Shown in pieces: positions 1 to 24,000 of a stretch of 64,000 bases of DNA. Each line of letters begins with the position of its first letter. Position 1 is the stretch's first letter. Location: positions 310,001 to 374,000 of the forward strand of contig QPMI01000044.1 in NCBI GenBank assembly GCA_004431415.1, given 5' to 3'. Origin of the DNA: Cyanophora paradoxa CCMP329. Its lineage: Eukaryota; Plantae; Glaucophyta. Below the pieces are notes generated by a model. It saw only the letters and a program-made list of their open reading frames with translations. It did not search any database and had not been told where the DNA came from. A program made the position numbers and the translations under genes.

Positions 1-3000
1 GGGCCGGGGCCCGCCCCTCTGGCATTGTGCGGGGCCTGACGCGCCGGCCGGGCAGCTTCTTCATGTGGGGCGTGCGGTGCGGCGAGAAGGGGAGCGAGGA
101 GAACCTCCTCGTCTGCTGGAGCGCCCCGCACCGTCCGCGCCCCTCCCCGCCCGGTCCCCGCCCCCGCGCGCCGCGGCCCCTCACGCGGCCCCGGCCCGCA
201 GTGATCTACCTCGGGGTGAGCATCATCGCGCTCCTGCTCTTCGTGCCCTACGCCTGCCTCATGGCCCTCGTTTACCACGGTCGGCCCTCCAGCTCCCTTG
301 AGCCGCCTGCCCTCGCTCCGCCCGCTTTGACCGGGCCCGGTCCGCGGGCGCGCGCGCGGCAGACCGGAAGCCGCTGTCGCGGGACATCGAGTCGCGCCCG
401 CACGGCCGCTTCGACTTCCTCTACCTCCTCATCCGTACCGCCATGGCGCGCCCCGCCCCGCCCCGCCCGGCCCCGCCGGCCCCGCCCGGCCCCGCCCCGC
501 CCCGCCCCGGCCCCGCCCCCGGCCGCAGCTGATTCGCGCCGGCGGCGCCCGGCAGGTCCTGATCACGGCGCTCGTCCCGGCGAGCCAGGTGGCGGCCATC
601 AACTTCACCATCTTCGTCCTCATGCTCCTCGCCGCCGGTCCGCCGCCGCCGCGCGCGAGGGATCCGCAGCCCGAGCTGACGCCGGCGCCGGCGCGCGCGC
701 AGCCTTCCTCATCGTGGTGCAGCCGTTCTACCGGCCGCGGATCAACGCCTTCCGCTGCGCGCTGATGACGAGCGCGGCGGTCTTCGCGCTCTGCTCCTGC
801 TTCCTCTCCTTCCTGGACACCGGCGCCAAGCTCGTCGCCTCCGTCGCCTGCCTTCTCCTCTCTATCGCCGCCCTCCCCGCCGGCTACTACATCTCCCGTG
901 CGCCCGCCCCGCCCCGCCCCGCCCCCCGCGGGGGCCGCCCGCCCGGCCCCCTTCTCGCGCTGACCGCGCCGCCTCGCGGGGCCCCGCGCGCAGTGATGTA
1001 CGTGCGGAAGGTGCTGCGGCGGCACATCAACGTCGAGGCGCCGGGCCCCGCGCGGCTCGCCACTGTGGACGAGGCGGGCGAGGAGAGGGCGGCCGCGGGC
1101 GAGGCGGGCGCCGACGGGGCCGGCTTCGAGGCGACGGGGGCCCTGAACGCCGGCGGGAGCTTCGCGCGGCGCGTCACGAAGGCGGCGCTCTCGGAGAGCG
1201 ACGACCTCAACGACGAGGACTTCAGCTGGCGGCGCCTCTTCCTGCGCGGCTACTTCTCCGAGAGCAAGTTCCTCTCCGAGGGCGAGGTCGAGGTCGCCAC
1301 CCGCTTCCTCCGCCGCGACCGCTCCCCCGAGGCCCTCGAGCGCGCCGAGGTGCCTCGTTCCCCGCCCCGCCCCGCCCCGCCCACCCGCCCCGCGCCGACT
1401 GCGCGCTCGCCCGCGCGCCCCGCAGGCGATCTACAAGCGCGGCATGGCCCAGTTCCCCGACTCGTCCTACGTCCGCATCTGCTACGTGCGCGCGCCCCCC
1501 CCCGGCCGGGGCCCGCGCGTTCGCGGCCCCGGCTCACTTGCGCCCGGCCGGGCGTCGCAGGCGAGCTACCTGATCCACTTCCGCAAGAACGCGCCCAGCG
1601 GGCTCCTGGAGCTCAAGGGCGCTTGGAGCACCAAGCCCCGCTTCGACATGCGGTGCGCCTGCGCACGCCCGGCGCCCGGCCCGCCGCCCGCCCGCGCAGG
1701 CTAGCGCTCTGACGCGGGCCCGGTCCGCCGCGCAGGTTCGCGCTCTCGTCGATCCGGCGGGACTGGGAGCAGATGAATACGGGGGGCGCCATCGGCGAGG
1801 AGCTCAACTTCGTGGGGATGCTCGAGTTCAAGCGCTTCTACGGGGAGGCGCAGAAGCACCACAAGGAGTGCCTGCGGCTGCTGAAGGCCTTCTGGCGGTA
1901 CCTGGCGAAGAAGAGCAACGGGAACCTGGGGACGGGGGTCGTGGAGGACGTCCCCAAGAAGCTCGCCGGCATCTACGCCGAGAAGCGCCTCGCCACCTCC
2001 GCCTACGAGAACCTCGTCAAGAAGTACCCCAACTCCAAGGTCCTCCTCCGCGCCTACGGTCCGCCACGCCCCGCCGGGCCCCGGCACCGGGACCTGCGGC
2101 CCTGACGGGCGCGGCCGCGGGTCTCACGCGCGGCGCAGGGACGTACCTGGAGGACGTGGGGAACGAGCCGGAGAAGGCCGCCGTGCAGTTCCAGCGCGCC
2201 GACGAGATCGAGGAGAAGGAGGCCAAGCTGCGCGGCGCCGGCTCGAGCCAGGGCGACCACTCGCGCACGAACGACGACAGCTCGGGGACGGGCAGCCACT
2301 CGCAGGGGACCGGCTCCGAGGGCTCCTCGCAGGCGGGCCAGGCCAAGAAGCGGCGCCGCCGCGGCCGCGAGTACAAGATCCAGACTAAGGAGGTCGACGC
2401 CGTCAAGCGCCTCTCGTACGGGTGCGCCCGCGCCCCCGCCCGCGCCCCGTCTGCTTAAGCTCTCATCCGAACTCGGCTGAACCCGCCGCGCGCGCGCGCA
2501 GCATCATCACGGGCCTGATCGTGCTTATGACGATCGTCGCCGTGACGTACGTCGTTGTCCGTGATCTCTTCGAGCAGTACGGGAAGAGGTCCGGCTCGCT
2601 TCGCCGCCCCGCTTCGCGGAGCGGCGCTGACGGCCGCGGCGGCCGGCGGCGGGCAGCATCAACCGGAGCCGGACGATCAGCCAGGAGCGCCGCGCCATCA
2701 GCGACATCACCTACTACGGCGCGCCCGCCCGCTTGCCCGCGCGGCCGCCTCTTCCGTGTTCCGATCCATGGCCACTCGCTGACGGCTGGCGCGCGCGCGC
2801 GCGGGGCGCAGTGCGGTCGCTGAACCTGATCGCGTTCGACAACGACGCGGAGACCTTCAAGCAGCAGCAGGACCTGCTCAACGTGGTGCGCCCTTCCCTC
2901 GGGCCATCGATATCGGATCTTTCTGCAGCTGTCTAATTTTCGCGCGTTTTCGCAGGCTGTGGACGAGTTCCTCAAGTACCACCGCATGCTCTACCTCACG

Positions 3001-6000
3001 AGCGACCCGGGCAACGTCGCCTCGTCAGACGCGACTGTAAGGACCGCGTGGACCACGCCCTCGATCGCCATCGAGTCGTGGAACCCGGGCCCGCCGGAGC
3101 GCATCACGACGCAGCTCCGCAACCTGTGGGACGCCGGCAACCTCTACAGCGATAACGTGCGCGCCCGCAGCCGCAGCAGCATGCGCAGCCGCCCGCGCCT
3201 CTGTTCACCGCTGACCGCGGAGTCGGCGCGCGCGCCCGACGGCTGGGCAGGCGCGGGAGTTCCAGTTCGCGAGGATGGAGGACCTCGTCGACGTTCAGAT
3301 GAACCCCCTCTTCCGCTTCGTGCGCCCCGCCAGTCCCCCGCCCGCCAGCTGCGGGCCCCGCCCCGCCCCCGGCCCAGGCCCGACGGCCCGGCCCCCGGCA
3401 GGTGATCCGCAACGGCGTCTTCGGCATCCTCGACGGCTCGCGCCGCGCCGTCACCGCCTACACCGACGAGGTGGACGCCCCGCCCTCCCCGCTTTCCCCA
3501 GCCGCCCCCGCCCCTCCCCGCCCCTCCCCTCCCGGAGGCCGCCCCCCACGACACCGACCGGAGGCCGACTGCCGCTGCGCGCGTTAAGCTAACGCGTCAG
3601 CCCGGAGCAGATCTAGTCGGAGCGCTAGAGTGACTCTTGGCACTGCGTGCACGTGCTCGGCGTCCGTCTTTGTGGCGACCATCTTATTCTCGCTTTTCGG
3701 AATCGTCCGGGTGAGATTTGTGCTGACTTGGGCGGTGGTTTCGCGCTTGCTCTCCCGCTATTTCCTGCTTTTGCTCGCATCCGCGCGATTAGATTACGAA
3801 TGGTCTGCCCAGTGGTTCCTATGCCCCGCTAACTTGCTAACCCCTCCCAAGCGATCCAGCGGTCCGGGGGTCTGCTGGGCGGCATGCTCGGCATCTTCTG
3901 CACAGCCATCCTAGTTCTTGTCTTCGGCGTTTTTCGCGTTGAGTGGACCCCCGATTCTGCGTTTTCTGCGCGGCCCGCCGGCCTCGGCTGCTTTCTTTCC
4001 CTCGCGGTTTCGCGGCCCCGCGCTGACGGCCGCTCCTCCGGTCCCCGCAGCCGGCGTTCAAGAAGGTCAACGCGATGCAGAAGGGCATCGTCGAGGTCTG
4101 CCGCGCCGCGCCCCGCGGGTTTCGCGGGCGCTGACGGGGCCGGGCCCGCAGATCCTGATGAACGTGCCGCGGCCGGTGATCCGCGCCATCTCGAAGCACT
4201 ACTCGCGCAAGAAGCTCGGCGGCGCCGCCGACGAGTCCGAGGAGTCCAGCTCGGACGACGACGCTGATGACGACAAGGCGCGCTCGCCCGAGCCGCACCC
4301 GCGGGTCGAAGGCCGCCGGCTGACGGGCGCGCGGCAGGCGGTCAAGTTCAAGAGCGCGAAGAGCATCGAGAACTTCGCGGAGGCGCCGGCGGCCAAAGGC
4401 AGCGAGGGCGAGGACGGGGCCCACACGCACCGCACGGACGGGACCGAGGACAGCGAGACAGAGAAGAAGCGGCTGCGCAAGGAGCGCAAGGCGGAGAAGA
4501 AGCAGGAGCGGGCGGAGCGGCGCGAGGCGAAGCACGCGGCGCACGTCGCGGCGGCGGAGGAGAAGAAGCGGCACGAGCACGAGAGGCACAAGGCGAGGCA
4601 CGGCAAGCAAGGCAAGCACGAGAAGGGCGCCGAGTCGGGCAGCGAGGGCGAGGCGGCGGCGCACCCGCACAAGTCGGCGAGCGTCAAGCGCGGCCAGGTC
4701 GCCCCACACTCGGCCAGCATGCACCTGAAGACGTCGGCCACGCCGCGGGCGGAGCAGCTGGCGGCGCCGCCGACGGAGGAGGCGCCCCCGCGGCCGACGG
4801 CGTCGCCCAAGTGCTCGGCGCGGCTGCGGCCGTCCTCGATGGAGGACGTCGCCGCGGCGGCGGCGGCCGCGGCCGCCGGCCGCCCCGCGGTGCCGGCGCT
4901 GCCCCACGTCGTGAGCGACGTCCTCACCTTCAGCCGGAGGTGCGCGAGGCCTAGAGGGGCGAGCGCGGGCGGGCGGCGCTGATCGCGGGCCGCAGCGACG
5001 ACGAGCGGGAGGAGCGGGAGCAGCCGGTCGACTCGAGCTCGGGAGCCGGCTCGAACAGCCCGCACAGCCCGCACAGCCCGCTCGACGTCCTCGGCCTCTC
5101 TTCCCCGCCCCTCCGTGCGCCCCGCCCCGCCGGCCCCGACCCTCGAGGCGCCTGCCGGCTCTCGCGACCGCTCTCGATCGCCGACGGTCGCCCCGCGCAG
5201 AGGAGGCGAGCTCGAAGGGCTCGAAGAAGGTCGAGGATGACTTCTCGATGATGACCGTGGACCTGGGGTCCTCCGTCAAGGCGCCGGCGGCCTCGCACGT
5301 GACGGAGTTCGGCGGAGAGCCGGCGCCGGCGCCGCGGCCGCGGCGGTCGAGCCTGCGGGGCGGCAACTCGCTCGGGGCCGACTCGAAGTACGCGCGCGCC
5401 GGCGGCCGCCCGGGGGCCGTCCAAGCGCTGGGCGGGGAGGGGATCGAGCTGGCGCGGGCCGAGTCGCGGGAGGACCTGAAGCCGCTCTCGAAGGGCTTCC
5501 TCGAGCGCATCCTCGCGGGCGGCCCCGCCGAGAAGAGCGCCTGGGACGTGAAAGACGACGAAAAGGGCGCCGCCGGCGCGCTCGCCAACGGCGAGGAAGA
5601 GAAGGCCGGGACCGACGTCGCGAGCACCGACGAGCAGCCGGGGAGCAGCGGGCACGGTGCCGCCGTGCCAACGGTCGACGCCGACGAGATCGACAAGAAG
5701 TGAGCGACGCGGATCGATATCCGAGCCGCGCGTGGCGCGCGCGCCGGCGCTCATGATCACGCCGCGGCGCCGCCGGCGGGGCGCAGGTTCACGGATGCGG
5801 CGGCGAAGACGCTGCGGCGGCTCACGATGAAGTACGTCCTCGGCTTCACATTCATCACCCTCGTCCGCCCCGCCCCGCCGCCTCGTCCCGCGTCGAGCCG
5901 CCGCCGACGAGCCTCTGCCGACGACCGTCCCTGCCCCGCAGGTCTGCGGAGCGAATATCGGTATGCCCTTCGCGCTTCGCTTTCCGAGTGCCCGTGGGAC

Positions 6001-9000
6001 TCCGGTTTTACGCACTGCCCACTATGTTCCATCTCGTTAACGCGTCGCCCCGCCTCCCACTCATACGCCACAAGCCACCCTCTACAAACCCCCTCCCAGA
6101 GCCCCCTTCCCCTCCCCGATACCCCTCCCCGAACACACTACCCCCTCCCCGAACCCCCTTCCCGAACGCACGCCCTGACATACTCCCCGAACCGTCTCCC
6201 CCAAGCTACCATGCTGTGGTTTATGGCGCGTACGCGTGGCCCCATTGCTGACTGTTTCGCTCGCTCGCCCCGCTCTCGCCCCGTCCCGTCTGTCCCTTCG
6301 CCTGGCGTCCTCTCTTAATCTGGTGTCTTCAAAGGCGTCTGCTTCTTTTTCAGTGCGTCCCCAGCCCCCCCCTTGGAATCGTCTGCGCATGCTGACTGGC
6401 GCGCAGTGGTATCGTCTGCTGTTCTTTGAACGGGGATGCTTAATTATAAGCAGCAAGACCGCTAACGGCGGGAGCGCGGGCCGCGATAGGCTGTCGGGAT
6501 TTTGCGCAAACTCGCGATATACCGCGAAATCACGCCCCCTCGCGCCCGGCCGAGCGCCGCGCCCCGCCGCGCGGCTCACGCCGCTCGCTTGCAGGTAAGC
6601 CCCACCAATTGCGCGCCCTCTTCTTTCTTTCCCCACTACCATTCTCAGTAAGCCCATTATCCATTTTCAAATTTCTCAGTAAGGCTCAGTAACAAATCAT
6701 AAATTAGCACTGTATTTTTCAAACATCTAACTCCTCCTTACTGAAACCAATCACAAAAACCTACATATAATCTTCTCTCTAATCCCTTACCATTTTCAGT
6801 AAGCCTTTATTCCGCCTTCCGATCTCTCAGTAAGGACAGTAAGACCCTATTTTTTGCGTAATGTTCCCGATCCTTGTCAAACTGTTTTCAGTAATTCAAA
6901 TTGAAAAATCAAGGTGAGCCCCACCGATAGGTTAAAACAACTTATGAAGTGCGTATATCCCCACTTAAAGATTTCCCACTATACAAGTATAAAGATGCCG
7001 GGTAATCAGCTCCCCTTACCTAAAAGTAAACTGTGCAATGTGTGCAAAGAGGTCAAGCCTGCATTGTGGTTCCCTTTGCGCAAGTGCAAGTCGGGAAATA
7101 TAACATTATATTGGAGATGCATAGAGTGCCACCGTGACTATCAAAATGATCACTATCACAATGTCTTAAAAACGCGTCCGAAAATCGAAGTACAATCGAA
7201 GATATGCCCGGATTGCAAGATTGAGAAGCCTGCAAGCGAGTATAATAAAAAGCAAAGTACGAAGGATGGTCTCTACTATAAATGCCGACAGTGTTATAGT
7301 GAGACTCGGACAAGCTAATCAATGAATACCTAATCGAATTTCATTTTATATTTTTTAAAGCAAGTTTGTGCTGCCGAAAATGCCCACCTGCACAAACTTG
7401 CGAGATCAAGGTAAGCCCCACCGACAAAGTACGACGATAGACCACGTTAAAATACACTCGCGCCCCGCCCACTATGCAAGATACATGCAAACTACATGCG
7501 AGTTCTATGAAAACAATAACGATTTAGTCATGTATATATTTCGTATATATGTCCGAACCTCCGTGTGTGTGATCCCGCACAACTTTGAATTTTTTGGTTT
7601 TTTTTGTTTTTTTTCGCATATGACGACATATACATATATATACCGGCGTCACCGACATATTCGGGGTCATCACATCGCGGCGATTCCGAAAACATATAGC
7701 ATGCCAGAAAGTAGTTTTTGAAGTGTTTTTCGATGTTCAACCAATCGCAAGCAGGGCGAGGAGGCTTGTCTAGGCTTGTCGAGGCGGCTTGTCTAGGCTT
7801 GTCTAGGCTTGTCTAGGCTTGTCTAGCGGCTTGTAATTGTAATTGTAATGCTGACGGCTTGTAATTGTAATATAGCATTCATGAGTGACAGGGGGGATAC
7901 CTAAAAGGAGACAGTTCTATTCATAAAGGAGACACCGGGGATACCATAAAGGAGACACCGGGGATACCGGATAAGAGACAGGTTTCTATTGACAGGTGTC
8001 GACAGCTGTCGTTTCTATTGACAGGTGTCACATGCAAAAAAAACCAAACAAAAGGCAAACAAAAACAAACAAAACAGCAAAACTAACAAAACTCGAAAAA
8101 CAAACGAAACCGCACCACAAACCGTTAAACGCTTGTATCTCTTCACCAGCTCATCGCCTCGCAAAACCAAAAATAGCGCCGTGACCGTCTTGACGAGACC
8201 AGCACGCACATGTAGATATCATAGGGTCATTAAAATATGTGTCAAATAATTAATAATGGATTCCCGATACCGCGGCTACCACGTAATGCTTGACTATATA
8301 ACCGACCCGTTCACCGAGTCTCCGGAGGCATGCGCCGAGTGGATCACAGCGAACCTATCGCAATATATCACAGATCGCAATATGCGCATCGTGCACCAGC
8401 ACACTTGCATTTTCGATGGCTCTATTTCCCCTCCCGGTTTCGCGATTGGCTTTCTATTAGATGAGTCGCATGCCACAGCTCACTCTTATAGCGACCAGGG
8501 GCTATTAGCGATCGATATCTTTACATGCGGCTCAAATGCCGAAGCAAAGACGATGGGTATAGCACGGGACATTAACGAACTCATACAGGAAAGGCTGAAA
8601 GTGCGAAAGTGGGACTTACAGGTCGAGCAAAGGTTCCCAATTTCATAAAAAATGAAAAAAACGACAGATATATTTAATGCTCCTTGATCGGAAACTTGCC
8701 CATTAGCGGGTGATCGAGACCCATGACATACCAGCATCGCATAACGGGATCCCAGCGGGCTTTCTCAGCCTTCGCTTGATCCTTAAATTCATAAGGAATA
8801 TCGAGGTAAACCTTCACGTTTCTTTGATACACTTGCTCATAGCTTAGAGTTTTGAACTGAGAGCATAGGGGGTGATCTTTCTTCGTGACATACCAGCATG
8901 AATTCTCACGATCCCACTTTCCACCGAGGGATTTCGCAACGTCTTTTTTATCAAACGGAATATCAACATAATACTTTTCACCCTCCATCTCTTTTATATT

Positions 9001-12000
9001 TACCGGAGAAAATAATTTCGGGGTTTGTTATGAACGAGAAGACCGAAGAATGCGCGTAGTAGGGGCTGTGTAGCTTGCGCTCTGATTCTTGAACGATTTA
9101 TACCACCTCTGACTGTTTACCTCTGAGAGCTTCTCAGTTCCCGCGATCGTTAGTTTAGCGAGCTCTCTCAGCGCCCTCTTTGTCTTTTCTGCGCGATCTT
9201 CCAATAAAGCCCCTTTCGGAACACTTGCGGCGACATCTATGCCTTCCTTTTGAACCTGCCGGATCGAAGCTGCCTCTACATCAGCCGCTAAAATAGCGTT
9301 GCCTGATGGCTCCACCACAGCCTCGACCTCTGTAATGATTTGCAATTCGTGCGGCTTAAAAAGCTTCGGCATTACGTTCCCCGCTGCATCTTGCACCTCT
9401 ATCGCGTTTCCTCTCCTTCCCGCAATTTTGTAGACCTCTCGGCTATACCTTTGGGTCGCTCCTTTATCAAACTTTGATCTCGGCAATAATACACGGACGT
9501 GGAGACCCGGCTTAAAGTCGCTGAATATATCCTTTACGATTGTGTTCTTCTTTGAAATAATAGCCGCTCGGATCCGCTCCATATCAGAAAGCTTAACATC
9601 TGCGGGTTTCATTCCTATGGTTCTGTGAATGGTGTTATTATAATTGAAAACGAAGTCGTCCAGCTTGTCCATAAATCGCACTGTGTTATAAGCGACACAA
9701 TAATTATTTATCATCGTTTTAAGGGTCAAATGAAAGCGATTCATTATTCCCAGCGAAGTGTGATCTCCGACCTGTTTAAAGCGGTGTTCTATTCCATTAT
9801 TTTTAACGACCTCCTGAAACTCCTTCGCGATGAATTCCGAACCGTTATCTGTCTCCAATCGAATCATCGGAGCCGGGAGCTCTGTGAGCATCTCCGCAAA
9901 AGCGGCGGCAACACTTGCGCCCTCTTTGTTCTTTAACTTCTTGGCATATGCTTTTCGGCTTGTCATCTCGATGAGAGTAAGGACTGCAATGTAGCCGGAA
10001 TTATAGCTGCCATATGAGAGATAAAAGATGAGATCGGCTTGGTAGCACCACGGCGGGGCTGTGATGGGAATAAAAGCTGTTTGGGTCGGTGCGGGGGGCT
10101 TCTTGTTGATCTGCATAAATTCTTGTTTCGCTGCGACATCTTGCACTTCTTTTAATGTGAGGGTCTTGTCCTCTTTTCTCAGCTCTTCGTATATCGCGGA
10201 CGGGTTCTTAAAACCTGTCTTCGGGTCATACATGCGTCGCACGATCTTAGAGGACGGGTTAGCAATGCTAAAAGGAACATCTCCTAATAAATTTGATTTT
10301 GCTTGGCGTTTTGTGATTTTTTGGGGGACTTGCTCAGTTTCAGGAACCGCGATAGGTAGAATGGTGGTCTCCGTTTCCTCGCCCGCTACCCTTCTGACGA
10401 TCCGTGACATTCTTCTAATTAACCCTGTTTATTTTTTGCTGCAATTGCACCCGTGATGCGCGAGTTGACAATTGTCTTTAAGATGTGGGCGCCTGTTGTT
10501 TATGCGATCCACGACGAGCCTATAATTCGGATCTTGCGGCTCAATCGGAATCGGAAGGGAACAGATCGCACAGGCGCCCTTCTGTTGCTTCTTGCGCTCT
10601 AATATCCACTCCGGCGTAATATAATCCGTCTCGTCGAAATCGCGCCCGGCACGCTGATCCTGGCATTTGTAGCCGCGAATCTTCGTTTTCAGATATTCGA
10701 TGTAGTCATGCTTACCTTGGAACTTGTGAATCGGTGTATAAATCAGCACAGTGGACAGATCGCGGTTACGAGTTAGCGCGGTATAGAACCATTCGCGAGT
10801 GGTATAGCGGAACGTAGCCTCACAAATGACAATGCCCGAATCAAGTGTGAGACCTTGCGTTGAATGACCTGTTCCTGCATAAGGGAGAGAAAAATGTTCT
10901 AACATCGCGCACGGAACCTCGAACGTTACACCATCGAAAACGTCAGTTAATGTGACCATTTGCTTTGTGATTTTGGTGATTCGATAGGTGTAATTTGTGT
11001 ATGCATTAATAGACTCACCCTCAGACCGCGAAATGCGTAGATACCTGCGGCAAACGACTTCCAGACCCTTGTAGAATTTGATGCCATTGACCTCTACGGT
11101 TGGGATATTTACTTTCCGTCTATCGTGCATCAGTTTGTTATAGGCTAAGGTCATTTCGTTTCTGTAAGCGATGCCAAAGTAGCCGTCAGGAATTGCGTTT
11201 AGATCATTAATTGTCGGCAACCCGTATTTCGAGATAATCTGTGCGGCTTCGAGTCCGTTTTCGAAGAGATCCTCTTTGATCGCCCGAATTAATTCACGGT
11301 CTGTCTCCTTCTTGTGCCGCTTGTTAATGCGTAGACTCAGGACGTTAGGGAACATGCTCTGCACAGCGCGCTTATAGTAGCCTTTGCGATCAGAAACCGA
11401 GAGGTCGTCATTAATCGGTTCGTTCTGATAGGTATCGCCATTAGCCAAATATTTGATATCCGGATAGCGATCGATAAACGACTTGATCTTAGCGAGATCT
11501 TTTACAGAATACGCGAATATCTCGTCGAACATAATGTGACTGAACTCGGAGACGAACGCCCTCTGGTCTTTTTCGCTCATAGCCTCTTCGTAGGTCTGAT
11601 CATTTGAGACACGGATCCCGAGAACATTATACAAAGTACGAACGGTAATATTCTCGATGCCGCGGACTTTGAGAGAGTCCCTTAGCTCTGCGCACTGTTT
11701 GTTATAGGGGCAAATAACTAAGCAATTCGACTTCTGAGATGCGAAACAGTTAATACCGAGTGTCGACTTTCCACTTCCGGGCATGTCAGCAAGGACAAGC
11801 ATACGATTATGGAGCTCCGCAACCCAATTAAAGCACTCAGGATTAAATTCGTCCCTCAGCGAGAACCGGTTAATGAGTGTGTCGGGATCCTGAAATTCGA
11901 GAGTTACACCCCGTGGTGGGCGGAGTGCATTCTCAGGGCATCTTTTCCCGGGAATATAGCTGAATTTGCCCATGTTCTCAAACGCATTTCGGTCGAACTC

Positions 12001-15000
12001 TTTCTTACTTGTCCATGAACCTTCGATATATAGACAGTCCGTTCTGATCCCGGCAACCTTGTGCCCGCGCGCTGTCAGGCGCTTGTATTGCGCAAACATA
12101 TTAGCGCGGTTACGATCGTAAATATGAAAGTGGATAGGAAGGAATCCGTTAACGAGCTCGCGGTGGGAGCTGATCTTAACGAAATAGATGTGACCTTCGA
12201 ATTCGCTAAGAGTTTTGACACGTTTCGAATTCTTAGGATTGAAAGTAAACACCTCTACTGTTCCTCCGCATTCTTGGGCAAACCTCTCAGCCTCGGCACG
12301 GTTGTAGAACATTTTCGTGGATGTTTGCGAGTCTTGGAATTTGCCGAGCATTCCGATCTCTTTCACTAAAATGTGCTTCTTATCTGTGGTTTGAATGTCG
12401 CTTGACAGCACTTTTTGCATCTCAGCGATCGACGTATTGGGCACCAAATGCGAAGGCTCCGCGACCGCGATAATCTCTATCTTGTCCTTTACGTCCGCCC
12501 AATGCATGGAGAGAGTGTAGCCTGTCATGAAATTATAACAGCGACCACTCACGGAAAATGCGCGATCCAGAATAATTTCGATTCCATCAATCTTGCGAGA
12601 CATGGCGGCATCATAATCTACATCCTCATCGTCGGCGAAAGTCGCTTGCTCTCTCTCAAACGCAACGACACGCACGTAGTAGATCGCGTGTTCGAGAATA
12701 TCGCTTCCCGCTTTAAAGGGAACGAAGTCATCAAACACATTGTATTTCGGAAGATATTGCATGCCTTTCAGTATCGAAGGGTAGCACTTCGCCATATCGA
12801 CAGCTGTGTAGGTGGCTTTCGGGTTCGGCTTATAGAAAAAGCCACTTAGTGCGGATCGCTTGTAGTGCGTGAGAATTTCGCGCATGTTCGGGCTGTAATG
12901 TGAGATATTCGTCGCATTTAGAAGCGACTCGCGGAAACCCTTACCGATTTCACAGACCTTATTATAATACTCTTCTGTTTCGAAATCTTGCTCAATAAAG
13001 TGGTCTGTTGTGCGTGGATCTTTGATAGAGAACATCGAGCCATTAGCTTTGAATGTGATGCTGTCGATCTGTTTCGATGGTGTTAGCTTCACTGCGGGTT
13101 CATATCGCATTTTCAGGAACGTAAATAGAAGACCTTCCAGACCTTCGCGCCCAGTATACAGAATGCGGATGAAACTGCGCTCGTCGGGCGATAGTTTTAA
13201 TTGCGTGATCTTTAACAGATCCTTGGATGTGTGCGCGAAGATATCGTGAGTAAGACACGTCGGAATTTTATAGAGTGCTAACGAAGAGGTCGACTTAGGA
13301 ACATGATTATCGAGCTCTTCGACCTCCATCTTTGCCATGCGCATTTCGAGCGACTTGATGTTATCGTTGAATATATAGATGTGCTTGTTGTGAATCATAA
13401 AGTGAATATTGCGGGGATTGATGTTTTTGTTAATTGATTCCGCCGCGAATTTGTATATTAACTTTCCGTCGACATCAAAGACGCGGAAGCCTGTCTGGAT
13501 TCTCTTACAGAATTTCTCGATATGGCGGAGGGTGAGAGCCAGAGAGTCGCCAGGTGTGCGCTCACGACCGTGAAAGAATTTATAGAGACCGTCGTAGGAC
13601 ATAGTTAAGTCAGTATATCGCGGTTTTGGCGCCTCCTGACACTTCTTAATGGACGCTCCCCATGTGGAGATGATCATATCATAGCCGCAAGCGTTAGATG
13701 TCGATGACTTGGGAAGCTCAATAACATCTTCGAACTCAGACGCGTTTGGATTTAATGTGTAGTCTGTGAATTTGCTCATAATCGCGGTGCATCGCATACT
13801 GTCCATAAGCTCCTCATCCAGAAACTCATAGCGATTGCCAGGTATAGCACCGGCTCCATCGTCCTCGACACCTTCATCCCCATCGATCGCGACCTCATGA
13901 ACAGTTATAAAGGCATCATCGACACTGCCGCCAAAATCATCGAAACCTTTGCGTAGTTTTTTCTGTTCCTCGGTTGGTGGTGTCTTAAAGAAGAACATCT
14001 CGTATGCTTGTCCGAAAGTTCCCAGACGAATCTTCAATTCATCGTAGTTTTCGAGTAAATCGAAGATTGATTCGCTCTCATGCCAATCATGACGAACTTG
14101 ACCCGGTCTAATTAGAATTTGAGACATTCTATCCATTTTCGCCAGAGCAAAGTTTCTCAACACCCTCACCGAAACTGTCTCTCTTATATTGCGGTAGGTG
14201 ACAAAGGTTCTGTCTGGTATATTTAATTCGGGAATTCCGGGAATAACAATTACCTCCGACGACCGAGCACCGGATCCGGGCGCCCATAGCTTGAACGTAA
14301 TTGTTGCGAGAGTTTCCGGATCATATTGGGCGATTGGGTCGAGAATAGTGCGTTTAATCGCATCCTCTACCGCTTTTAGTTTACCTCTCTGCTGCTTCGC
14401 TTCGAGTTTCGCTTCTTTCGCTCGTTTCTGTTCTTGCTTGCGATCGAAGCGCTGTAAACGCTTCGCCTCTTGTTCTTTTTGCTTTTGCTTTTCTATATTA
14501 ACTTGGGTGCGAGCGGCGCGCTTCTCTTTCCGCTCTGCCCTGCGGAAAACGCGGGGATTAATGATGCCATTCAGAGTATCCCGAATGTCTATCAGCGTTT
14601 GGAGCTTGGGCTTCCGATTCATTGTGTTGTGCATCGCCCAATGCGCCTGTTCTTCGGTTAGCAAATCCTGACTCAATCCCTGCATAATGTATCCGATAAT
14701 TTCATCCCGAACATTGTTAGCGATTCTGTTGGTTGCGCGCGGCATCTCTATTAGTTCTTTTAAAATAACCGGAGAAAATAATTTCGGCGCAATCTACCAA
14801 ATTCTCCTTTTCATACCCTTGTCGCCAAATCTTTAAGTGCTTTTTTGACCGATACGGGGAATAAAAATGGAGGTAAAAAATTAATCATTTTTTGCATCGT
14901 ACGGATACTTTCCGCTACGAATTTTTTGCGTTCTCGACGACATGCTTTCGGGGTCTCCCAGCGGGCTTTTGCGGCTGGGGCTTCACCGGCGGATTCAGCT

Positions 15001-18000
15001 TGCGTTCCGCTCTTTTCCTTCGTTGGTATTCACGTGCCTTCTCTCGGATTTTCTCCCGATACTCTTCATCGTCTTGGTATCGCTGCTGTTTACGAATTGC
15101 GATCTTTTGTAGCTGTTCCGGTGTGAATATAGTAGCCTCTCCGGCGGCTAATCGCTCTTGCTTTTGTCTCTGATGCTTGTTTCGCTGCCGCTCTGCATCT
15201 TTCTCGCGTTTTAGTCTTAATCTCTCCGCTTTCTCCTCTTCTGTGATCACCTTCTTCGGTCGCCCTGGTCTGCGCTTTTCTTGCTGTGCCGCCATTGCCT
15301 CTTGGTTTGAAATCTTGGGTTTCGCCATTTACTATAACCGGAGAAAATAGTTTTTTGTCACTCTGTATTATTTCCCTTGCCCTTATATACCTTTTACCGA
15401 AACCTTCAATTTTTGCCCTTGGCTCGATACAAGCGCCACCGAAATTCACCGCTCAATAACCGTTCCAGACGGTTTGTTCTTGTTGCTGAGGATATACATA
15501 AGGGTTTGTTAAGCTGTCATCGTCGCCTAATGCCATTTGATCCAATCTATACATCGGATAAGGGGAGTCAGCGCGAAAATGCCCTTCCACAAATTCAGGA
15601 CATGAGCGCCTTCTAATATGCTCTACATGCACATCCTCTATCTGAGAGGTTTCGATATTGGAACTCATAGCCGCGGGCACAGGCGAGGGCGATCGAGATC
15701 TTGGGTGGTTGTGATTGTCGCTGTGGTTAGAATATACAGAAAGGCGCCTACCTCCATTCTCGTCGTCAGAAATATTAACCTCTACGGTTGTGTCGCAACA
15801 GGAGTTATGGCACGTGCTCGTGAAATGTAAATGAAACATTTCGATGCATTGTGTGATGAAATTCATCGACCCTACAAATGGGCAACGTATTAAATATCGG
15901 AGAAAATAAAAGGGAATGAGGGCTTTACTTGCTCGTGTGTTCCCTACGAATTAGTCGACCTTATAATGCTGTTTATGGAGCCGACATGCCCGTTTTGCAA
16001 GGGCATTCATATTAAGACACGCTCTAAATACGGGCGGGTTCAGCTTTGCCTTGCGGATATTCACAGCCATTAGCGGATATGGCGTTTACCACCAAGCATT
16101 GCGGCATAATTTACGGGTGCAGTCGGCACTATGTGCGCATATTGCGGGGCGACCGATTGCTGACGAGTTACGGCTTGCGCATCTGTCTTTTCCTCCTTTT
16201 TAATCTCCTCTACGTCGACTTTTTGCTTTAATCCGAGTTTGGAGATCTCTTTCTTTACAAGCCCCTTTAATTTCTTGCGTTCGTTATAATCTTGCATCCA
16301 TTTCTCGTAGTTTGACACTTTCATTTCAAGATCTCGCACTTTCTCTTCGAAGCTCATGACAACGTCGACTGGAACAGTGTGTTTTTGATAGGATCCGCGC
16401 TTTTTAAGCTCGGTTTCGGCGGCTTTCGGGACGTCTTGTGTCTTGTGCTGGCTTGCAACAACTTGCGCTTTGAGTACTTTGTCGGTTGCTTCATCAACAG
16501 AGCCGCCTCCAATCTGTGGTTTTACAGTAGCTAAATCCTCCATTTGGCGTTTACCGCTATCTTGGTTTCCCTTGTCCGCGGTGGCACTCGCAATAATCGC
16601 CTCTTGCTTGGCGACCTCTTCTGGCGAAGTGTCTACCAGATATTCGGGCATTTCGAGACCGCCGCCCGACGTTAATCCAGACTCTTCAAGTCCGCGATTT
16701 GGATTACCAGAAGCGACCGTTTGAATGGTTTGAGGCTTCTTTCGGTAGACCATGATTATCTTTTCTTACACTTTATTAACATTTTCTTTTTCTTCGGCGA
16801 AATTTGGGAAAGTTTGGGGATACCTTCAAGCTCACGTTCAAATTTCGATAAAGTTTTACAGACAGTTGTCGAATCTTTGACAGGCGGCGGTTTTGTAGCT
16901 TGCTCTTCTTGTTGTTTGCGCTTCTTTTCTTCAAAAGCCGCCCGCTTGTGGAATTTAGTAAACGGGTGGTCATCGATCATATCGGCTTTTTCGACCCACC
17001 ATCGCACAGAATACCCGGTATTATCGTGAATGATCGCTTGGTAGCTATGACAGAATTCTTGGAACATGCGCTTGAAACTCTCTTTATCCATGTTCCCGAA
17101 TTCCTCGTGATATGCTTCAAACTCTCGCATGTTTGACCAGCTTAGGAATATGATATACTCCGCATTGCTGCGAATGATCGTTGACAGCTTTGTTAGTTTC
17201 TGCGATATTAAAGCGACGCTACAAAACGTATGACGACCTTGCGCCATCAATTTATTTAGCAAATGATCGCGCGAAAGATCGATAGTTCCGGACTCCAAAC
17301 AATCGTCGAGCACGATAAGAATATTCTTTGGTTTCTTTCCAGCGATGATAGCTTTCTTGCGGGCTTCTATGATCGACTCTACGTATTCCGGTTTCCAGGT
17401 ATCATGCACTTCGTCTGTTATTTGACCCCAGAAACCGTTAAAACTCGTAGGACAGAAAACCAGAACATACGAGATCTGGTCTTCGAGTTCTTTGATCAGC
17501 CACTTTAAGAATACCGATTTACCACAATTGGTTTTCGCCAATAGGAGAAATCGTGCGGGAAGTTTCACCCTTTGTTTCGGGTTCCATTCTTCGAGATCCA
17601 TGGGCGTCGTCCCTTTTTGCATTCTTTCACTATAAAAACAATAGAAAAATAAGACTGAATGTGGTAATCGCACGAATTCCTCATGCTGATACTCTTCGGA
17701 TTCCGTCGGCGGAAATTATCATTATGTTATGAGCGAGGGCAATGCACTGAATTTGCATCTTCTGATAAGCGGTACCCGCATACCACTCCTCATTACCGAC
17801 TCCACCGGCTGTGACACCATTGAATTCGAAGACCAGATCGAACGCCGATGTGCCTGTGGCATCGATGTAGCCCGTGTTCTCTTGGTTGAGAAGCGACGCC
17901 TTTCCGTTTCCAGCACCGAAGTAAATGCCAGAGAGAGCCGGGTAGCTTGTGCTCTCGGTAAAGATCGCCGAATTATATTTATCTTGAAGTTCGGTCGCGG

Positions 18001-21000
18001 CAATCATGAGAGGAAGCGAAGTATTCGAGTAGAGGCGGTTATTGTTGAGTTCCACATAGAAGCTTACAGCGTTGGTTCGGAGTGCACGAGGAGCCAGAAC
18101 CGAGAGAGTTCCGTTGTTCACCTTTGTCTTCGCGTTTTGGCGCACAGAGAATACGAGAGTGTGGATGAGACCCGCACCTGTGAGTTGCGAGAGATTGACT
18201 CGCGAACCGGAGGCGGTCGGCTGGAAATCTGTGTGGAGGAAACCGATTTCGTTGTAGGGGATCGCGATACCAGTCGATTTAACACGGGCAATGGTCTCAG
18301 ATACAACCGCCTCATCGGCATTTACGACCTTGCAGATAATGCGGGGTTTCAGCACTTGAAGGGAAGCACCACTGTTTACGACCGAAATATTGCCAACATT
18401 GTTTACATCCTCAATGATACCATCACCAATCGCCTTGAATTCGATTTCGACCACGATCTCAGAGTTCAGAGCGCAAAGTGGGAACATCGCCTTCTCGAAA
18501 GGAGAGGGTAAATCGATTTCGTAGGTTCCACCGACAGTGTTACCAGCGGTTCCGACAAGACCACCCACATAGCGAAGTTTCTTATCGAGTTCTCCCTGTT
18601 CGGTCATCAGTAGAAAATACTGGGTGACGAAATCCTCTGGGACAACATAGCGGAATGAAGCGTGAGAGATTTCAATGCGCTTAATTAGCGATCCAATAAC
18701 GCGAAGGTAGCCAGTAGTTCCAGCGACACCATTCGTGAGATCAGTGAGGGTGATCGGGTTAAGATCGAGTTGCAGCGCGAGACCATTCAGGAAATGGTAG
18801 CGGGGGATTTTGAAGACAACTCGGTTGCCGAGAGCGCTGGGTGGCTCAGTGTCGGGGGCGACCAGAACTCGAAGTGGCTTAGTGCCAGAGGACGTTCCAA
18901 TGACCAGCGACTTGTTTAGGAAATAATCCTTGTAGTCATCGGTGGTGAGCATAGATTTCAGCGTTGGGCGCTGGAATTGGCTGTTTGTCTCCATGAGCGT
19001 TTCTTCTCTTATCTTTGGGATCAGAAAATAATTTACAGGGCTTAGTAGAAATTCATTTCGGGCGGTGCGTCGTAGGTTTCGATCTCAAAAGTGAAATAAT
19101 GCGCCCAAATCCCGAAATCTAAGAGAGCGCCATCATGGTCGATGAGTTTAATCGTCAAGCGGTCGAACGATTTTAATTCGCGGAATTCACGAATGAGAGG
19201 CACAGTTGTGGACGTGTCGAAGTGGTAGATATCACCATGTTCGAGTTCCTGTGGGATTGGAATGCGCATGAAATAACCGTCGACGTGCTTGTTGACTGAG
19301 CGAATAAACGGCGCGAATTCGTCAATATATAGCCAGATCATTGCAGCCGGGGTCTCATCTCCACGAGTATAGCCGCGAATGCGTCGATTAAGTGTCACAG
19401 TCCCCGATCCAGGATTAAACACAAGGAATGTATCGTTTGCAAGAGGTGTAAATGTCTCGTAAACATATAGTTGAATATCTTTGAAACCGAATATTGCGAG
19501 TTTCTTAGCGATTGCTTTGCGGTTACTGGATTTTCTGAGTGTTTCAGGGGAAGCTTTGGAGAACTTGAACCAAAAGTTACTATCACTGAAAAACTCATAG
19601 ATCTTTGAAGTAGTATTATAGCGGCATTTAATATATTTTCCACCGAAATCTGAAAGGCGAGCTGCTTCGAGTCTTTCTGTGACTTTTGCGGCAAGGTCGT
19701 CTTTGGTGTAAAATCCTTTGGGGATTGTGATGGTCACGAATCCGGAATCCGAAGCTGTGACCGAGAAATAGAGTTCCATGCGCTCGATGGTTGCACCAGT
19801 GGCGTCTATATCGTTTGTCACGGTCGAAAGAACATTGGGAACCGTTGCCTGCACCAGGCGCACCGATTTTACGTTGTCATAGCGACGGGGTAATGTCACT
19901 ACATACTGGTTTGGCTGAGTAAACTCCTCGTCGCGATCATCGCTCGAAAAGCTCAGGTATTCTTTCATCTTACTATAATAGATTATGAAAAGAATAACAA
20001 TAAATTGCGACAGTAGAGACCTTGAAAACGGCGTGCTGCACTTGAAAACGCGCCTTAATAATGTACGACGATTTCGTGTGCTATCCGCTGAGATTCCCAA
20101 TAGCTCTTATGTTGTTCCGCCCGAACAGACAATAACTATAACGCTTTTGAACGAAGAGCCCACAGTAATCCCCGCATCCAAAATGATAGCACCGATTCCC
20201 AGCGTAAACGATTATTATTACGTCGATGCTGATAACGAACGATATCCGAAAGAGAGAGCTCTAAACAGTGATGCTTTACTCGGATTTGCGGGCGGTTCTT
20301 TTAATCCACTCGGTCTCTTCCCGGTTTCCTATTCTCTCGCTCTGTCTACGAACCGCTTCGTGTTCTCATCTCCGAATAGCCCTTTTACATTAGAGTCCTC
20401 AGACCAGGAGTTCTGTGACTGTCTCGGCATAGAACCCGGAGTGGTTTACGCCAGCACACCAGAACCAGTGCCGGTTCCACTCAGAGATTACCCCAGTCGC
20501 TACGCGATTATATGCCCGAAAATGGTCGACTTTAATGCAATTCCATATATTTACCTTGATATCGAAGAGCTCCGCCCGTTTACCAAATTCGCAGCGGTTA
20601 CTGGGAGACAGAACAATTTCGACGACTCCTATCTATTGCGAATTCAGATGAACTCGGACTTTGGTAGATATTCCTTTTACCACGAACCGAGCGCAAGCAT
20701 CCCTTTCGTAAATGTCACATCGCAACTCGATTTAGATCGTCTCACAATATCGCTTCGAAAATGGCGGGGCTCTGTTGCGGATATAAACGGTCTCTCATAC
20801 TCGTTCCAGCTCGAAGTGATCACCGATTAAGCGCTGTTCACACGTAGTAGCCCTCGAAATCTATTCGGCATGCCGAAGCTACGTTCGTTGTGAGCACCCA
20901 GATTACGAGGGTTCTCACAGATCTCGGGTTTGCTAAGAAATGTTCGTCAGGATCGGCACTTCCGGCTATTTGATTTGCATTGGTAAACACTCTCGTCGCG

Positions 21001-24000
21001 CCGGCTTCTGTGTATGTAACAAGCGCAGAAACTCCCGGAGTTAATTGGTAATCGATCTCAAACGTTTTAATGTAGTTTCCATTCGCAGCCGGCTTCATTT
21101 TTATTGAGGAAAGCATAAACAGACGCGGAAAATCAATGCGTAAATAATTGCCTCCCGACCTACTACCTTGCGGCGGGTTAGTAAATCCCACCCACCCCGT
21201 GGCATTCGACCAGCGGGCATTGGAGGCTGTGCCGAATTCCGCAATAAAGGCGCTATTATCGAGCGGCACCCAGTTAGACTCCGGGGGTGCACTTATATCT
21301 GTGCATCCGGACAGATTAATTATGGGAACATCGCCCTCTGATATATTCATCGTCAGCACCGAATACATTGCATTAAAATAGGTTTGCTGTGCGGAAACAA
21401 AGGCGAGGGCTTCCGTTTCCAAATATTGCAGGTGACTCGTTGTGATAGTATCGAGAGTCATTTTATCTTTCGGTAAAGGCACGCTCAGCTTATAGTAGCG
21501 ATCGTAATTCTGATCATCATTTCTTGGTAAAAGTTCCAGTAGCTTTACGTGGGCGTTTAGATCGCTCGACTCTAAGAACATGCTGAGAATTGGCGATCCT
21601 GTGGCGCTTAGCATCCATTGCACGATCCCCCAATTTTTCATAGTGTCGTACGAATATCCAGATGTCGCCTTATCAGAGTCTTGGACGTGACCCGCCGTAA
21701 TCGAGACCACGATTAGCTCCTCCTCGCAAGAGTTTCCGAATAAAGTGCGGGCGAATGTGTAGCCGCAAACCCCGGGCGAATTATTTCCACTCATGCAACC
21801 ATCAATTAAACAGTATGTTCTTCCGGCGACTGTGACTTGTTTCGGCTCGAAATAGGTCGGAGCAGCCGAGGTAGCCCTTGCAGCATCGCGCACAAGCATC
21901 CCATTAATGTCTTCATCGTTGCTTGAAATAAAAACGGGGGACATTAAGATCGTGTCAAACGCAGTCACGATGGTGGGTTTATAGAGATCCGCCATGGTCG
22001 CTGAGCCGCAGAGTTCCAGAGCCACAGCTTCTAAGTTAGTTGCTTCGTACTTTGGGCGCTGTACAATCGATGTAAGCACTCGCGGATTCGCGAAAATCAG
22101 TGGTAGTTTCGCTTTGTAGAGCGCGAGAATATCAGTAGCAGTATATTTAGGGGCGCCATCGGTTCCCTTGATATTCAATAGGAGCGCGATTAATCCACCT
22201 GTGGATGTTCCCGCAAAGCAGTCGAATAGCTGTTGGATTCGTTTACCTGTTTGGGCTTCAATCTGTGCCAGTATAGCAGCCTCGATTATTCCACGCGACC
22301 CTCCACCACTCAAAGCGAGGCAGGTCTTCATTATCTTATATACTTCTTATATATCTTCTTTGTTTATAAAGAGGATGTCGTTCCTGAATCCGAGACCCGA
22401 TGCGCGAGTAATTAATTCGACCACGCAGATAGAAGACACTGATCAAGTAAACAACGAAATTCGCGGGTCTCTGAGAATAAATTACAATGCAGACCGCGAA
22501 GATCCAGTCAGTGGAACACCGAGCAGACCCGCAGCTTTGCAGTTAATGAACGTCGAGAAGGGGGATCATAAACTTGGAATCGACTTTTTACTTGATGATA
22601 ACGAACGAAACCGAGTTGCCAGCATTCAGGCAACCCGCCAGCTACCGAAAACGGTGCGATATAATCGCAGGAACATCCCGAAAGCATTCGATAGAGGTCG
22701 CTTAAACTTCTTCATTCAAGATGAGAGCGGTTTCCAAAATGCAGCTATGAGAATCGTGGATAATAGCACACTTATAGCGGGAGTATCCACACGAAAAACA
22801 AAGGTAGAGGTCGTTCATGATCTCTCAGCAGGTAATCTTACGACGAGTAATATTACAGCAAGTAACATCACTACGGATACCCTAAACGTAAACTCGCTTA
22901 ACTCCGAGTCGTTTTTCGCCACTAATGTCGCAACCTGTAACCTAAACATCGAATCCTTTGTGATTCAGAAGAGCGAATCGGTTCCCCAGATAACAGAGGG
23001 CGTTTTCACATTAGACCCCGCGAAACCGACCTTAGAAATTGTCGAAAATGGGGACGTTGTGGATATAATTGGCGCCAATGCTCCGAATGTGAGATCCTTA
23101 GCACTTGATAAAACGACTATATCATTTGCAGAGGAAATTCCGGCATTTACCACAGAGAAACAGGCACTGAGAACAGATCATGTTTACATTACCAGAGACA
23201 ATATAAACGATCTTTTAGGCAAGGACATCGTAAAGGCGTTTTTGGAGTTCGAGAGGAGCAAGAACACCAAAGATTCCAGCCAGGATGGAACCCTCACGAC
23301 CCACACTACCGAAATCGCCGCTTTGCAATCCGAAATTAATGCTCTGTTTGCAGCAGATGGAGCGCTTGCAATTACCTTAGCCCATATTCTATCGAAAAGG
23401 AACATTTACCCCGCGACTGACAACACATACCGAGTTGGTTTATCGAATCTGAGATGGTCAGAGGTGCATGGAGTTTCCATGTTTGCCTCCAATTTAATCC
23501 TTCCATTTAATCACTCACTCCGACCCAATCAGATTCTCACCAGTGATAATGCACTAATCAGCTACACCGACTATAATAGTAACCTTTCCCGCTCGGTTTC
23601 GCAAACTGAGACCTACACTGTCGAGGGATACCCTCAGCAGCTCGCGAATGGGGTCTATGTCGCTTATGTAGGCAAACCTACATATACATTCACTTGGGAT
23701 CAGTTGGGTGTCACAGGTTTCGAGACGACTATACCCACTGTTTCATTGGTGGATCACACTACTTATTATAATCCTATCTATAACAATAATGAATCTAATA
23801 AAGCATTTATCCAAAATGTCACCTCCACAGGGTTTCAGGTTTCGTTTGTCATTAACGAGACATACAATTTACTTATCATCCGAAACAACTCATTGAGTTC
23901 CGAAGCTACTATAAGTTTCACTCTTACCATCAATTATATCACCCCTGAATTCGATAGCAAACCCAGAGTGAAGGTTTACCGAGATTTACAAGGTAGCAAT

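Follow-up and report, generated by a model that had tools for sequence, protein, structure and literature searches.

A Polinton-like virus in an intron of Cyanophora paradoxa supplies a splice acceptor to the host transcript and probably acts as a gene trap

The window analyzed here is a 64,000-nucleotide stretch of Cyanophora paradoxa CCMP329 DNA (contig QPMI01000044.1, positions 310,001 to 374,000, forward strand), most of whose first half is taken up by a TmcB-like host gene interrupted by a large mobile element (Table 1). One host exon matches the TPR_TmcB family (E 5.9e-11), and the matching exons of the host model are identical to the EukProt Cyanophora paradoxa model g12767. The model has 32 introns, five of which (72, 3482, 3616, 3862, and 5076) are of low confidence and were excluded before donors were counted. 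Host introns had been described as mostly very short in the preliminary description of this DNA, which agrees with a median of 79 nt (n = 26), although the intron that carries the virus measures 369 nt. The splice signals of the gene are unusual: the donors are mostly GYGCGC, with C at +4 in 23/27, GTRAG in 1/27, and GTAAG in 0/27, and 6/27 are GC donors. The model is unreliable at 3482–4050, a region close to which the EukProt models of the three paralogs all stop; it may contain a longer intron, microexons, or an error in the assembly. Further along the window, host repeat arrays at 53727–57501 (11 copies, spacing about 350 nt) and 59402–62066 (8 copies, spacing 276–431 nt) are probably repeated exon-intron units of repeat proteins.

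The element (6583–31793; 25,211 bp) is an endogenous Polinton-like virus (PLV) as judged by its TIRs, TSD, and gene content. A TSD length of 6 was the sole matching length among lengths 3–11 checked, the GC content of the element is 39–51% versus roughly 70% in the flanking host gene, and at least 17 ORFs are spread over both of its strands. Of the features that define a PLV, the TIRs, TSD, and size, a predicted double jelly-roll capsid, and an A32 ATPase with an integrase were found together; for the replicase, protein-primed PolB or a helicase, an SF1 helicase was detected. The structure model of the capsid (pLDDT 62) matches the iridovirus and PBCV-1 MCPs in Foldseek (E 4e-17 to 7e-17; Atlas 0.98), and just 5 sequence relatives were found among 1.84 billion representatives. 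One of these relatives (39%) is an annotated Cyanophora paradoxa gene, which implies that this host harbors at least one further endogenous virus family, a divergent one. Ahead of its SF1 helicase the 1438-aa protein carries PolB-like (pPolB-like) motifs, recognized by eye alone, and profile searches (Pfam, PHROGs) returned no polymerase family match for this protein; its domain order resembles the Tlr1-type PolB-helicase order mentioned in the available text of PMC12721341. An endonuclease VII-like part follows the helicase at the C terminus. In PHROGs (E 1e-10 to 1e-11), the 124-aa CxxC protein encoded in the TIR resembles HNH/endonuclease VII families in their zinc-binding parts, and a homologue search with it gave none at E<=0.001. 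The element also codes for a patatin, an S74-domain fibre-like protein, and an S-adenosylmethionine decarboxylase-like protein, the product of a polyamine-pathway gene (8256–8648, + strand; Pfam E 1.4e-11); three tandem 129-nt repeats (26615–27001) lie within the 1468-aa fibre-like gene and are His-rich when translated.

Table 1. Positions of host and viral features in the window
Feature	Position	Strand	Basis or remark
Host TmcB-like gene, interrupted by the element	55..32985	+	Gene model; 5′ end beyond window
Host 20-nt microexon upstream of insertion	6206..6225	+	Joined to 6595 and 31812 in RNA contigs
Native GC donor (GCGCGT) of virus-holding 369-nt intron	6226..6231	+	RNA contigs, gene model
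Putative cryptic 54-nt GT-AG intron	6353..6406	+	Acceptor seen; donor by arithmetic
Host branch motif CTCAC, A at 6578	6575..6579	+	Last three bases within TSD; putative branch use
Left TSD CACGCC	6577..6582		Repeat comparison
Left TIR	6583..7488		906 bp
TIR-supplied acceptor CAG, used in vivo	6592..6594	+	RNA contigs X15, X16
Donor-like GTAAGC	6595..6600	+	Sequence only; no RNA joint from 6595
Array of 7 GTRAG	6595..6927	+	At 6595, 6648, 6679, 6799, 6830, 6839, 6914
In-frame TAA for exon-6595 product	6649..6651	+	18 codons into TIR
TIR-encoded 124-aa CxxC protein	6944..7318	+	Mirror copy 31060-31434 (-)
Third copy of AGGT(A/G)AGCCCCACC repeat	7405..7424	+	TIR repeat analysis
rve (retroviral-type) integrase	9028..10410	-	Pfam PF00665, E 2.5e-13
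1438-aa protein, SF1 helicase at C terminus	10429..14745	-	PHROGs Dda-like helicase, E 2.3e-13
A32-type packaging ATPase	16756..17622	-	Pfam PF04665 (Pox_A32), E 1.7e-10
Major capsid protein, predicted double jelly-roll	17681..18994	-	Structure model, Foldseek, Atlas clusters
Right TIR	30890..31793		Two 1-nt indels vs left TIR, both in homopolymer runs
GCTTAC	31776..31781	+	Reverse complement of donor GTAAGC
Right TSD CACGCC	31794..31799		Branch A position kept (31795), motif there GCCAC, not CTCAC
Native acceptor CAG 31809-31811 and downstream exon	31809..31876	+	RNA contigs in 3/3 runs

Single TIR contigs in the DNA run X2 have depths of 53–491, compared with 13–16 for single-copy junction contigs, and contain variant letters; depth is not copy count, and together these data point to a virus family with copies numbering roughly in the tens. 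A search with the pattern of the TIR end gave 0 matches in viral contigs and 0 in metagenomes, and no relative with intact termini was confirmed via capsid, ATPase, and integrase searches and capsid alignments. Just inside the left TIR, short tandem repeats (7775–7870 and 7890–8030; units GGCTTGTCTA, TTGTAA, and GGAGACA/GATACC) are possible replication or packaging signals. The motif TATTTTCTCCGG, common to the upstream regions of several leftward viral ORFs (14915–15866, - strand), is a candidate viral promoter element.

The outermost part of the TIR is rich in motifs that resemble splice signals. GTRAG occurs 7 times in the first 340 nt (20.6/kb, versus 1.2–1.5/kb inside) and so does CAGTAA, all on the inward strand, and part of the GTRAG array arises from an internal duplication of 74% identity. 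GGT(A/G)AGCCCCACC is present in three copies per TIR, two of them inside a 20-nt repeat. The conserved CCCCACC tail of this repeat has no role in the splice consensus, which suggests a repeat at the DNA level; AGGTAAGCCCCACC would be chiefly a DNA element repeated in the TIR, which, speculatively, the small CxxC protein encoded there could bind. The density of GTRAG and the frequency of the terminal motif in shuffled sequence (0.04%, see below) are also compatible with selection on splice signals.

The insertion point lies inside the host GC-AG intron, 4 nt past the branch A. The left junction reads GCTCACGCC/GCTCGCTTGCAG/GTAAGC and the right junction GCGAGC/CACGCC GGGCCCCCGCAG/exon, and these letters, the TSD, and the GCTTAC near the right end are exactly as the preliminary description gave them. 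The viral CAG closes the first 12 nt of the TIR and GTAAGC follows directly. The distance from the branch A to the acceptor G is 16 nt in the filled site (6594) and also 16 nt in the reconstructed empty site, so that the earlier statement that the virus supplies a YAG at exactly the host spacing is literally correct. However, the host has no single spacing: CTNAY branch motifs occur in 20/26 modelled host introns at 12–36 nt from the AG, with exactly 16 in 1/20. The equal spacing is a 1–2% coincidence that function, given this range, does not need. The possibility of chance, already raised with that statement, was quantified by dinucleotide shuffling of the TIR (20,000 starts): the first AG was a YAG ending at 5–30 nt in 6640/20,000 (33%) and one ending exactly at 12 nt in 317/20,000 (1.6%), and YAG/GTRAG was found in 8/20,000 (0.04%). 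The terminal acceptor-donor combination is therefore unusual, AG/GTRAG at the terminus being rare under shuffling.

After use of the viral acceptor the regenerated donor would read ATG/GTAAGC, which scores 6.0 on a host-donor matrix (host leave-one-out scores 0.2–9.9, median 6.4) and fits the canonical donor at 6/9 positions, the same as the best host donor; with such a mid-range score there is no ground for calling the viral donor unreadable, and it should be usable. The GCTTAC at the right end had been proposed as a branch site, and splicing in either orientation had been suggested. The letters are present, but as the reverse complement of GTAAGC they are forced by TIR symmetry, from which the suggestion about orientation also follows, and neither point adds independent evidence. 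Between GCTTAC and the native acceptor lie two AGs (31788 and 31792). RNA structure at the junction gave z = -0.15, and an Rfam search of 6200–8300 gave 0 matches. In the single other flank among the X2 records listed, the 32 nt that precede the TIR contain no CTNAC on the strand that reads inward (n = 1).

Transcripts at the insertion were followed in assembled contigs from runs X15 and X16, which come from one sample, and X17, from a second; the records of all three lack an RNA label, and we took them as RNA by their spliced junctions. Product A joins the microexon to 6595 (X15, 50-nt contig; X16, 58-nt contig) and is absent from the X17 contigs. The TIR acceptor is therefore used, in keeping with the earlier proposal that the viral terminus rebuilds the host acceptor, and the intermediate joined to 6595 that was predicted with it, i.e. 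the first step of recursive splicing, is seen in 2/3 RNA runs and one of the two samples. Product B, present in 3/3 runs, consists of contigs whose alignment starts at 6407, continues past the TSD, and is unspliced across 6594/6595 (CAG/GTAAG). These contigs carry 156 unaligned letters before 6407, and 6197–6352 is exactly 156 nt long, which suggests that in product B the intron is kept from 6226 and the cryptic intron removed (X15: 156 + 217 = 373 letters); product B reaches a stop inside the retained intron. Product C joins the microexon to 31812, in 3/3 runs. Products A and C use GC-AG and product B a putative GT-AG pair on the + strand, and all are thus sense host transcripts. Transcripts exonising or ending inside the TIR, which had been named as counting against removal of the provirus by splicing, are in part what the contigs hold: RNA enters the TIR in the manner of an exon, both spliced and read-through.

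No joint from the TIR to 31812 was found in the contigs of 3/3 runs, in an assembly type that drops rare variants, and the single contig per run that enters 31811 carries the microexon alone. Product B RNA spliced from 6595 or 6914 to 31812 was likewise unassembled in the three runs, which makes such a copy-specific product less likely, within the limits of contigs that drop rare variants. Splicing from the internal donor 6913/6914 to 31812 was considered and rejected for X15, where a contig ends at 6914 and no follow-on contig or joint appears (6/6 X15 records). Contigs of the TIR end without loose ends at left-equivalent positions 6914 (X15), 6847 (X16), and 6762 (X17), where the DNA continues; as the three stop points differ, they are a weak hint of termination in the TIR. 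The contigs, which cannot show ends or levels, contain no poly(A) tail or RNA 3′ end, and in a search for poly(A)-like words neither AGTAA (15 observed versus 10.3 expected) nor TGTAA was enriched. From about 6915 to 9000 there is no RNA contig in X15 or X17, a gap in cover that we do not count as evidence. RNA contigs of a sequence-variant TIR in X17 span the same terminal zone, so other copies of the element are likely transcribed there too. The right TIR is short of one base at each of two homopolymer runs (31509 and 31521), where the X15 RNA contig has the left-TIR version; the gaps are possibly assembly errors, yet the X15 RNA probably comes from the left TIR.

The contig depths of products A + B were 8.6 + 9.2, 8.4 + 12.4, and 0 + 5.4 (= 17.8, 20.8, and 5.4) in X15, X16, and X17, respectively, and those of product C 19.2, 15.1, and 11.4, i.e. 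of the same order. For a transient intermediate one would expect lower depths than these, bearing in mind that contig depth measures level poorly.

Product C has a second possible source. The paralog g12766 (P0008) has the next gene number, lies on the same contig as g12767, and is ~98% identical to it in amino acids over the modelled part. RNA contigs carry g12766 letters at 998 (G>A, Met>Ile; X17) and at 2348–2350 (Lys>Arg; X15), the X15 contig with the latter variant matching the window without difference in its three other listed pieces, and the paralog is expressed in both samples. Run X2 contains a 445-nt DNA contig (depth 12.8, compared with 16 for the filled left junction) in which 31802–31879 is preceded by 284 letters for which no TIR match is listed and which make no joint. 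This one contig would represent the virus-free paralog. The right DNA junction of the filled copy is not among the X2 records listed, from which we conclude nothing. The exon-31812 junction can come from a near-identical paralog that is expressed, and product C is consequently not diagnostic of the filled copy: the joining of the upstream exon to 31812, earlier put forward as a check on removal of the provirus, does occur in 3/3 runs, but the normal mRNA would derive from the insertion-free paralog. A second allele of a diploid was considered and dropped in favor of the paralog, since the variant letters are those of g12766 and the available text of PMC6704402 reports haploidy as the more likely state of the species.

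Taken together, we consider it probable that this locus is an intronic gene trap set by a recently integrated PLV and buffered by a near-identical paralog. The viral integrase would have cut just past the branch motif and before the acceptor of the host intron, the match in spacing being an accident of the cut site. The host branch A would then select the CAG of the TIR, the spliceosome taking the next YAG, now a viral one, and joining the upstream exon to it. The TIR would likely be kept as the last exon, with transcripts ending, probably polyadenylated, 170–330 nt into it, such that this gene copy would be truncated and full-length mRNA supplied by the paralog. One mark of a gene trap, a host exon spliced into element sequence, is observed. 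Against this reading, the exon-6595 junction is the exact intermediate of recursive splicing, and the product of a completed second step would equal the paralog mRNA.

That intermediate is the starting point of the alternative in which the element removes itself: ATG/GTAAGC would be spliced to 31811, so that the 25.2-kb provirus is taken out and the filled copy yields normal mRNA. The first-step junction exists, the regenerated donor scores as usable, the normal junction is present in every run, and both ratchet halves plus a downstream donor at 6914 are in place, as in Drosophila ratchet points (PMC8605326, available text). We nevertheless regard self-removal as unlikely. The read-through RNAs cross the donor unspliced and their copy-specific join to 31812 is unassembled in 3/3 runs, the normal junction is explained by the expressed paralog, at the right end the branch motif is damaged and other AGs compete, and GTAAG is absent from the 27 host donors counted, which favor C at +4. 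Polymerase would moreover have to traverse 25 kb containing at least 17 ORFs on both strands, in a gene with the short median intron given above. An evolved form of the same idea, in which the terminal acceptor, the seven inward donors, and the branch-like CTTAC on the outward strand make up a TIR splice array by which the 25-kb provirus is ratcheted from pre-mRNA, mimicking an intron, is doubtful to the same degree. Removal in one step, with the GC donor at 6226 spliced directly to 31811 as a 25.6-kb intron, possibly aided by TIR pairing (SOS/hybrid splicing), would also account for the normal junction, and the TIRs are near-identical over 906 bp; in animals ITR pairing triggers transposon excision (PMC12779559, available text). 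It needs the same 25-kb read-through, and the GC donor, itself weak, is already either spliced to the closer TIR acceptor or passed over, which makes this route very unlikely.

The motif density of the TIR could instead reflect an evolved insulator, in which a terminal array of an acceptor, GTAAG, and CAG/TAA repeats has been selected to trap and end host transcription that enters from either flank, so that the provirus stays silent. The GTRAG and CAGTAA motifs, seven of each and uniformly on the inward strand, are what such a device would contain, the variant-TIR contigs of X17 cover the terminal zone, and the stopping of contigs within this zone is a weak hint in the same direction. However, the array is largely one internal duplication, so the counts are not independent; AGTAA shows no enrichment as a candidate poly(A) word of the host; and searches found no relative with termini in which conservation could be tested. 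An insulator therefore seems rather improbable as an explanation, and the gene trap remains the reading we prefer.

Many endogenous PLVs are present in protist genomes, and how they are tolerated inside genes of intron-dense hosts has been little studied. At this locus the consequence is visible in public RNA data, where the splicing of the host gene to a viral terminus uses a composite signal of host branch motif and viral CAG. The insertion likely shortens the host message rather than the virus splicing itself out; self-removal is possible, at a low probability. If the second step occurs, recursive splicing is supplied by a virus; if it does not, the locus is an ordinary but well-documented gene trap. 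Were ratcheting true, a virus would mimic an intron in a host with introns of less than 100 nt on average, and the first step of this ratcheting is already seen in RNA. The locus is a suitable test case, as the alga is in culture, the virus family has many copies, and a near-identical, apparently insertion-free paralog serves as a built-in control.

Intronic gene traps that act through a splice acceptor are known from L1, endogenous retroviruses, and proviruses. The element described here shares with these exonisation, intron retention, and probably a truncated transcript from an intronic insertion, and differs from them in that its acceptor is a composite of host branch motif and viral YAG and in being a DNA virus in a glaucophyte. 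The endogenous PLVs of protists are 14–40 kb long with long TIRs and a TSD of 5–6 bp (PMC12220804 and PMC12721341, available text). With these the element has in common its size class, long TIRs, a 6-bp TSD, an rve integrase, a packaging ATPase, a double jelly-roll capsid, a GC contrast with the host, and many copies (PMC12220804; PMC12721341); unlike the PLVs described, its capsid has few sequence relatives (5), and the available text of these two sources does not describe host use of a TIR splice acceptor. A literature search, with most subscription papers outside its scope, gave no report of a PLV terminus serving as a host splice site, and the word "Polinton" has 0 occurrences in the available text of PMC12130899 and PMC12779559. 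Drosophila ratchet points consist of a tandem acceptor/donor with a downstream alternative donor (PMC8605326, available text), and the element has the tandem YAG/GT (6592–6600), the first-step junction, and the downstream alternative donor. At a ratchet point a second step, sawtooth coverage, and conservation would be expected as well; of the two splicing steps the element shows the first-step junction, and its site came with a recent mobile insertion instead of being a host feature that is conserved. For Tc1 ITRs, spliceosomal sites have been proposed to act upon landing near a host splice site, and in introners, Tc1, and the present element alike a splice signal sits in the mobile terminus and the remainder is borrowed from the target site (PMC12130899, PMC11282704, and PMC12779559, available text). 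Introners, however, are mostly short and non-autonomous, create new introns, and are removed (PMC12130899; PMC11282704; PMC12779559), whereas the element is a 25-kb coding virus that lies inside a pre-existing intron rather than forming a new one.
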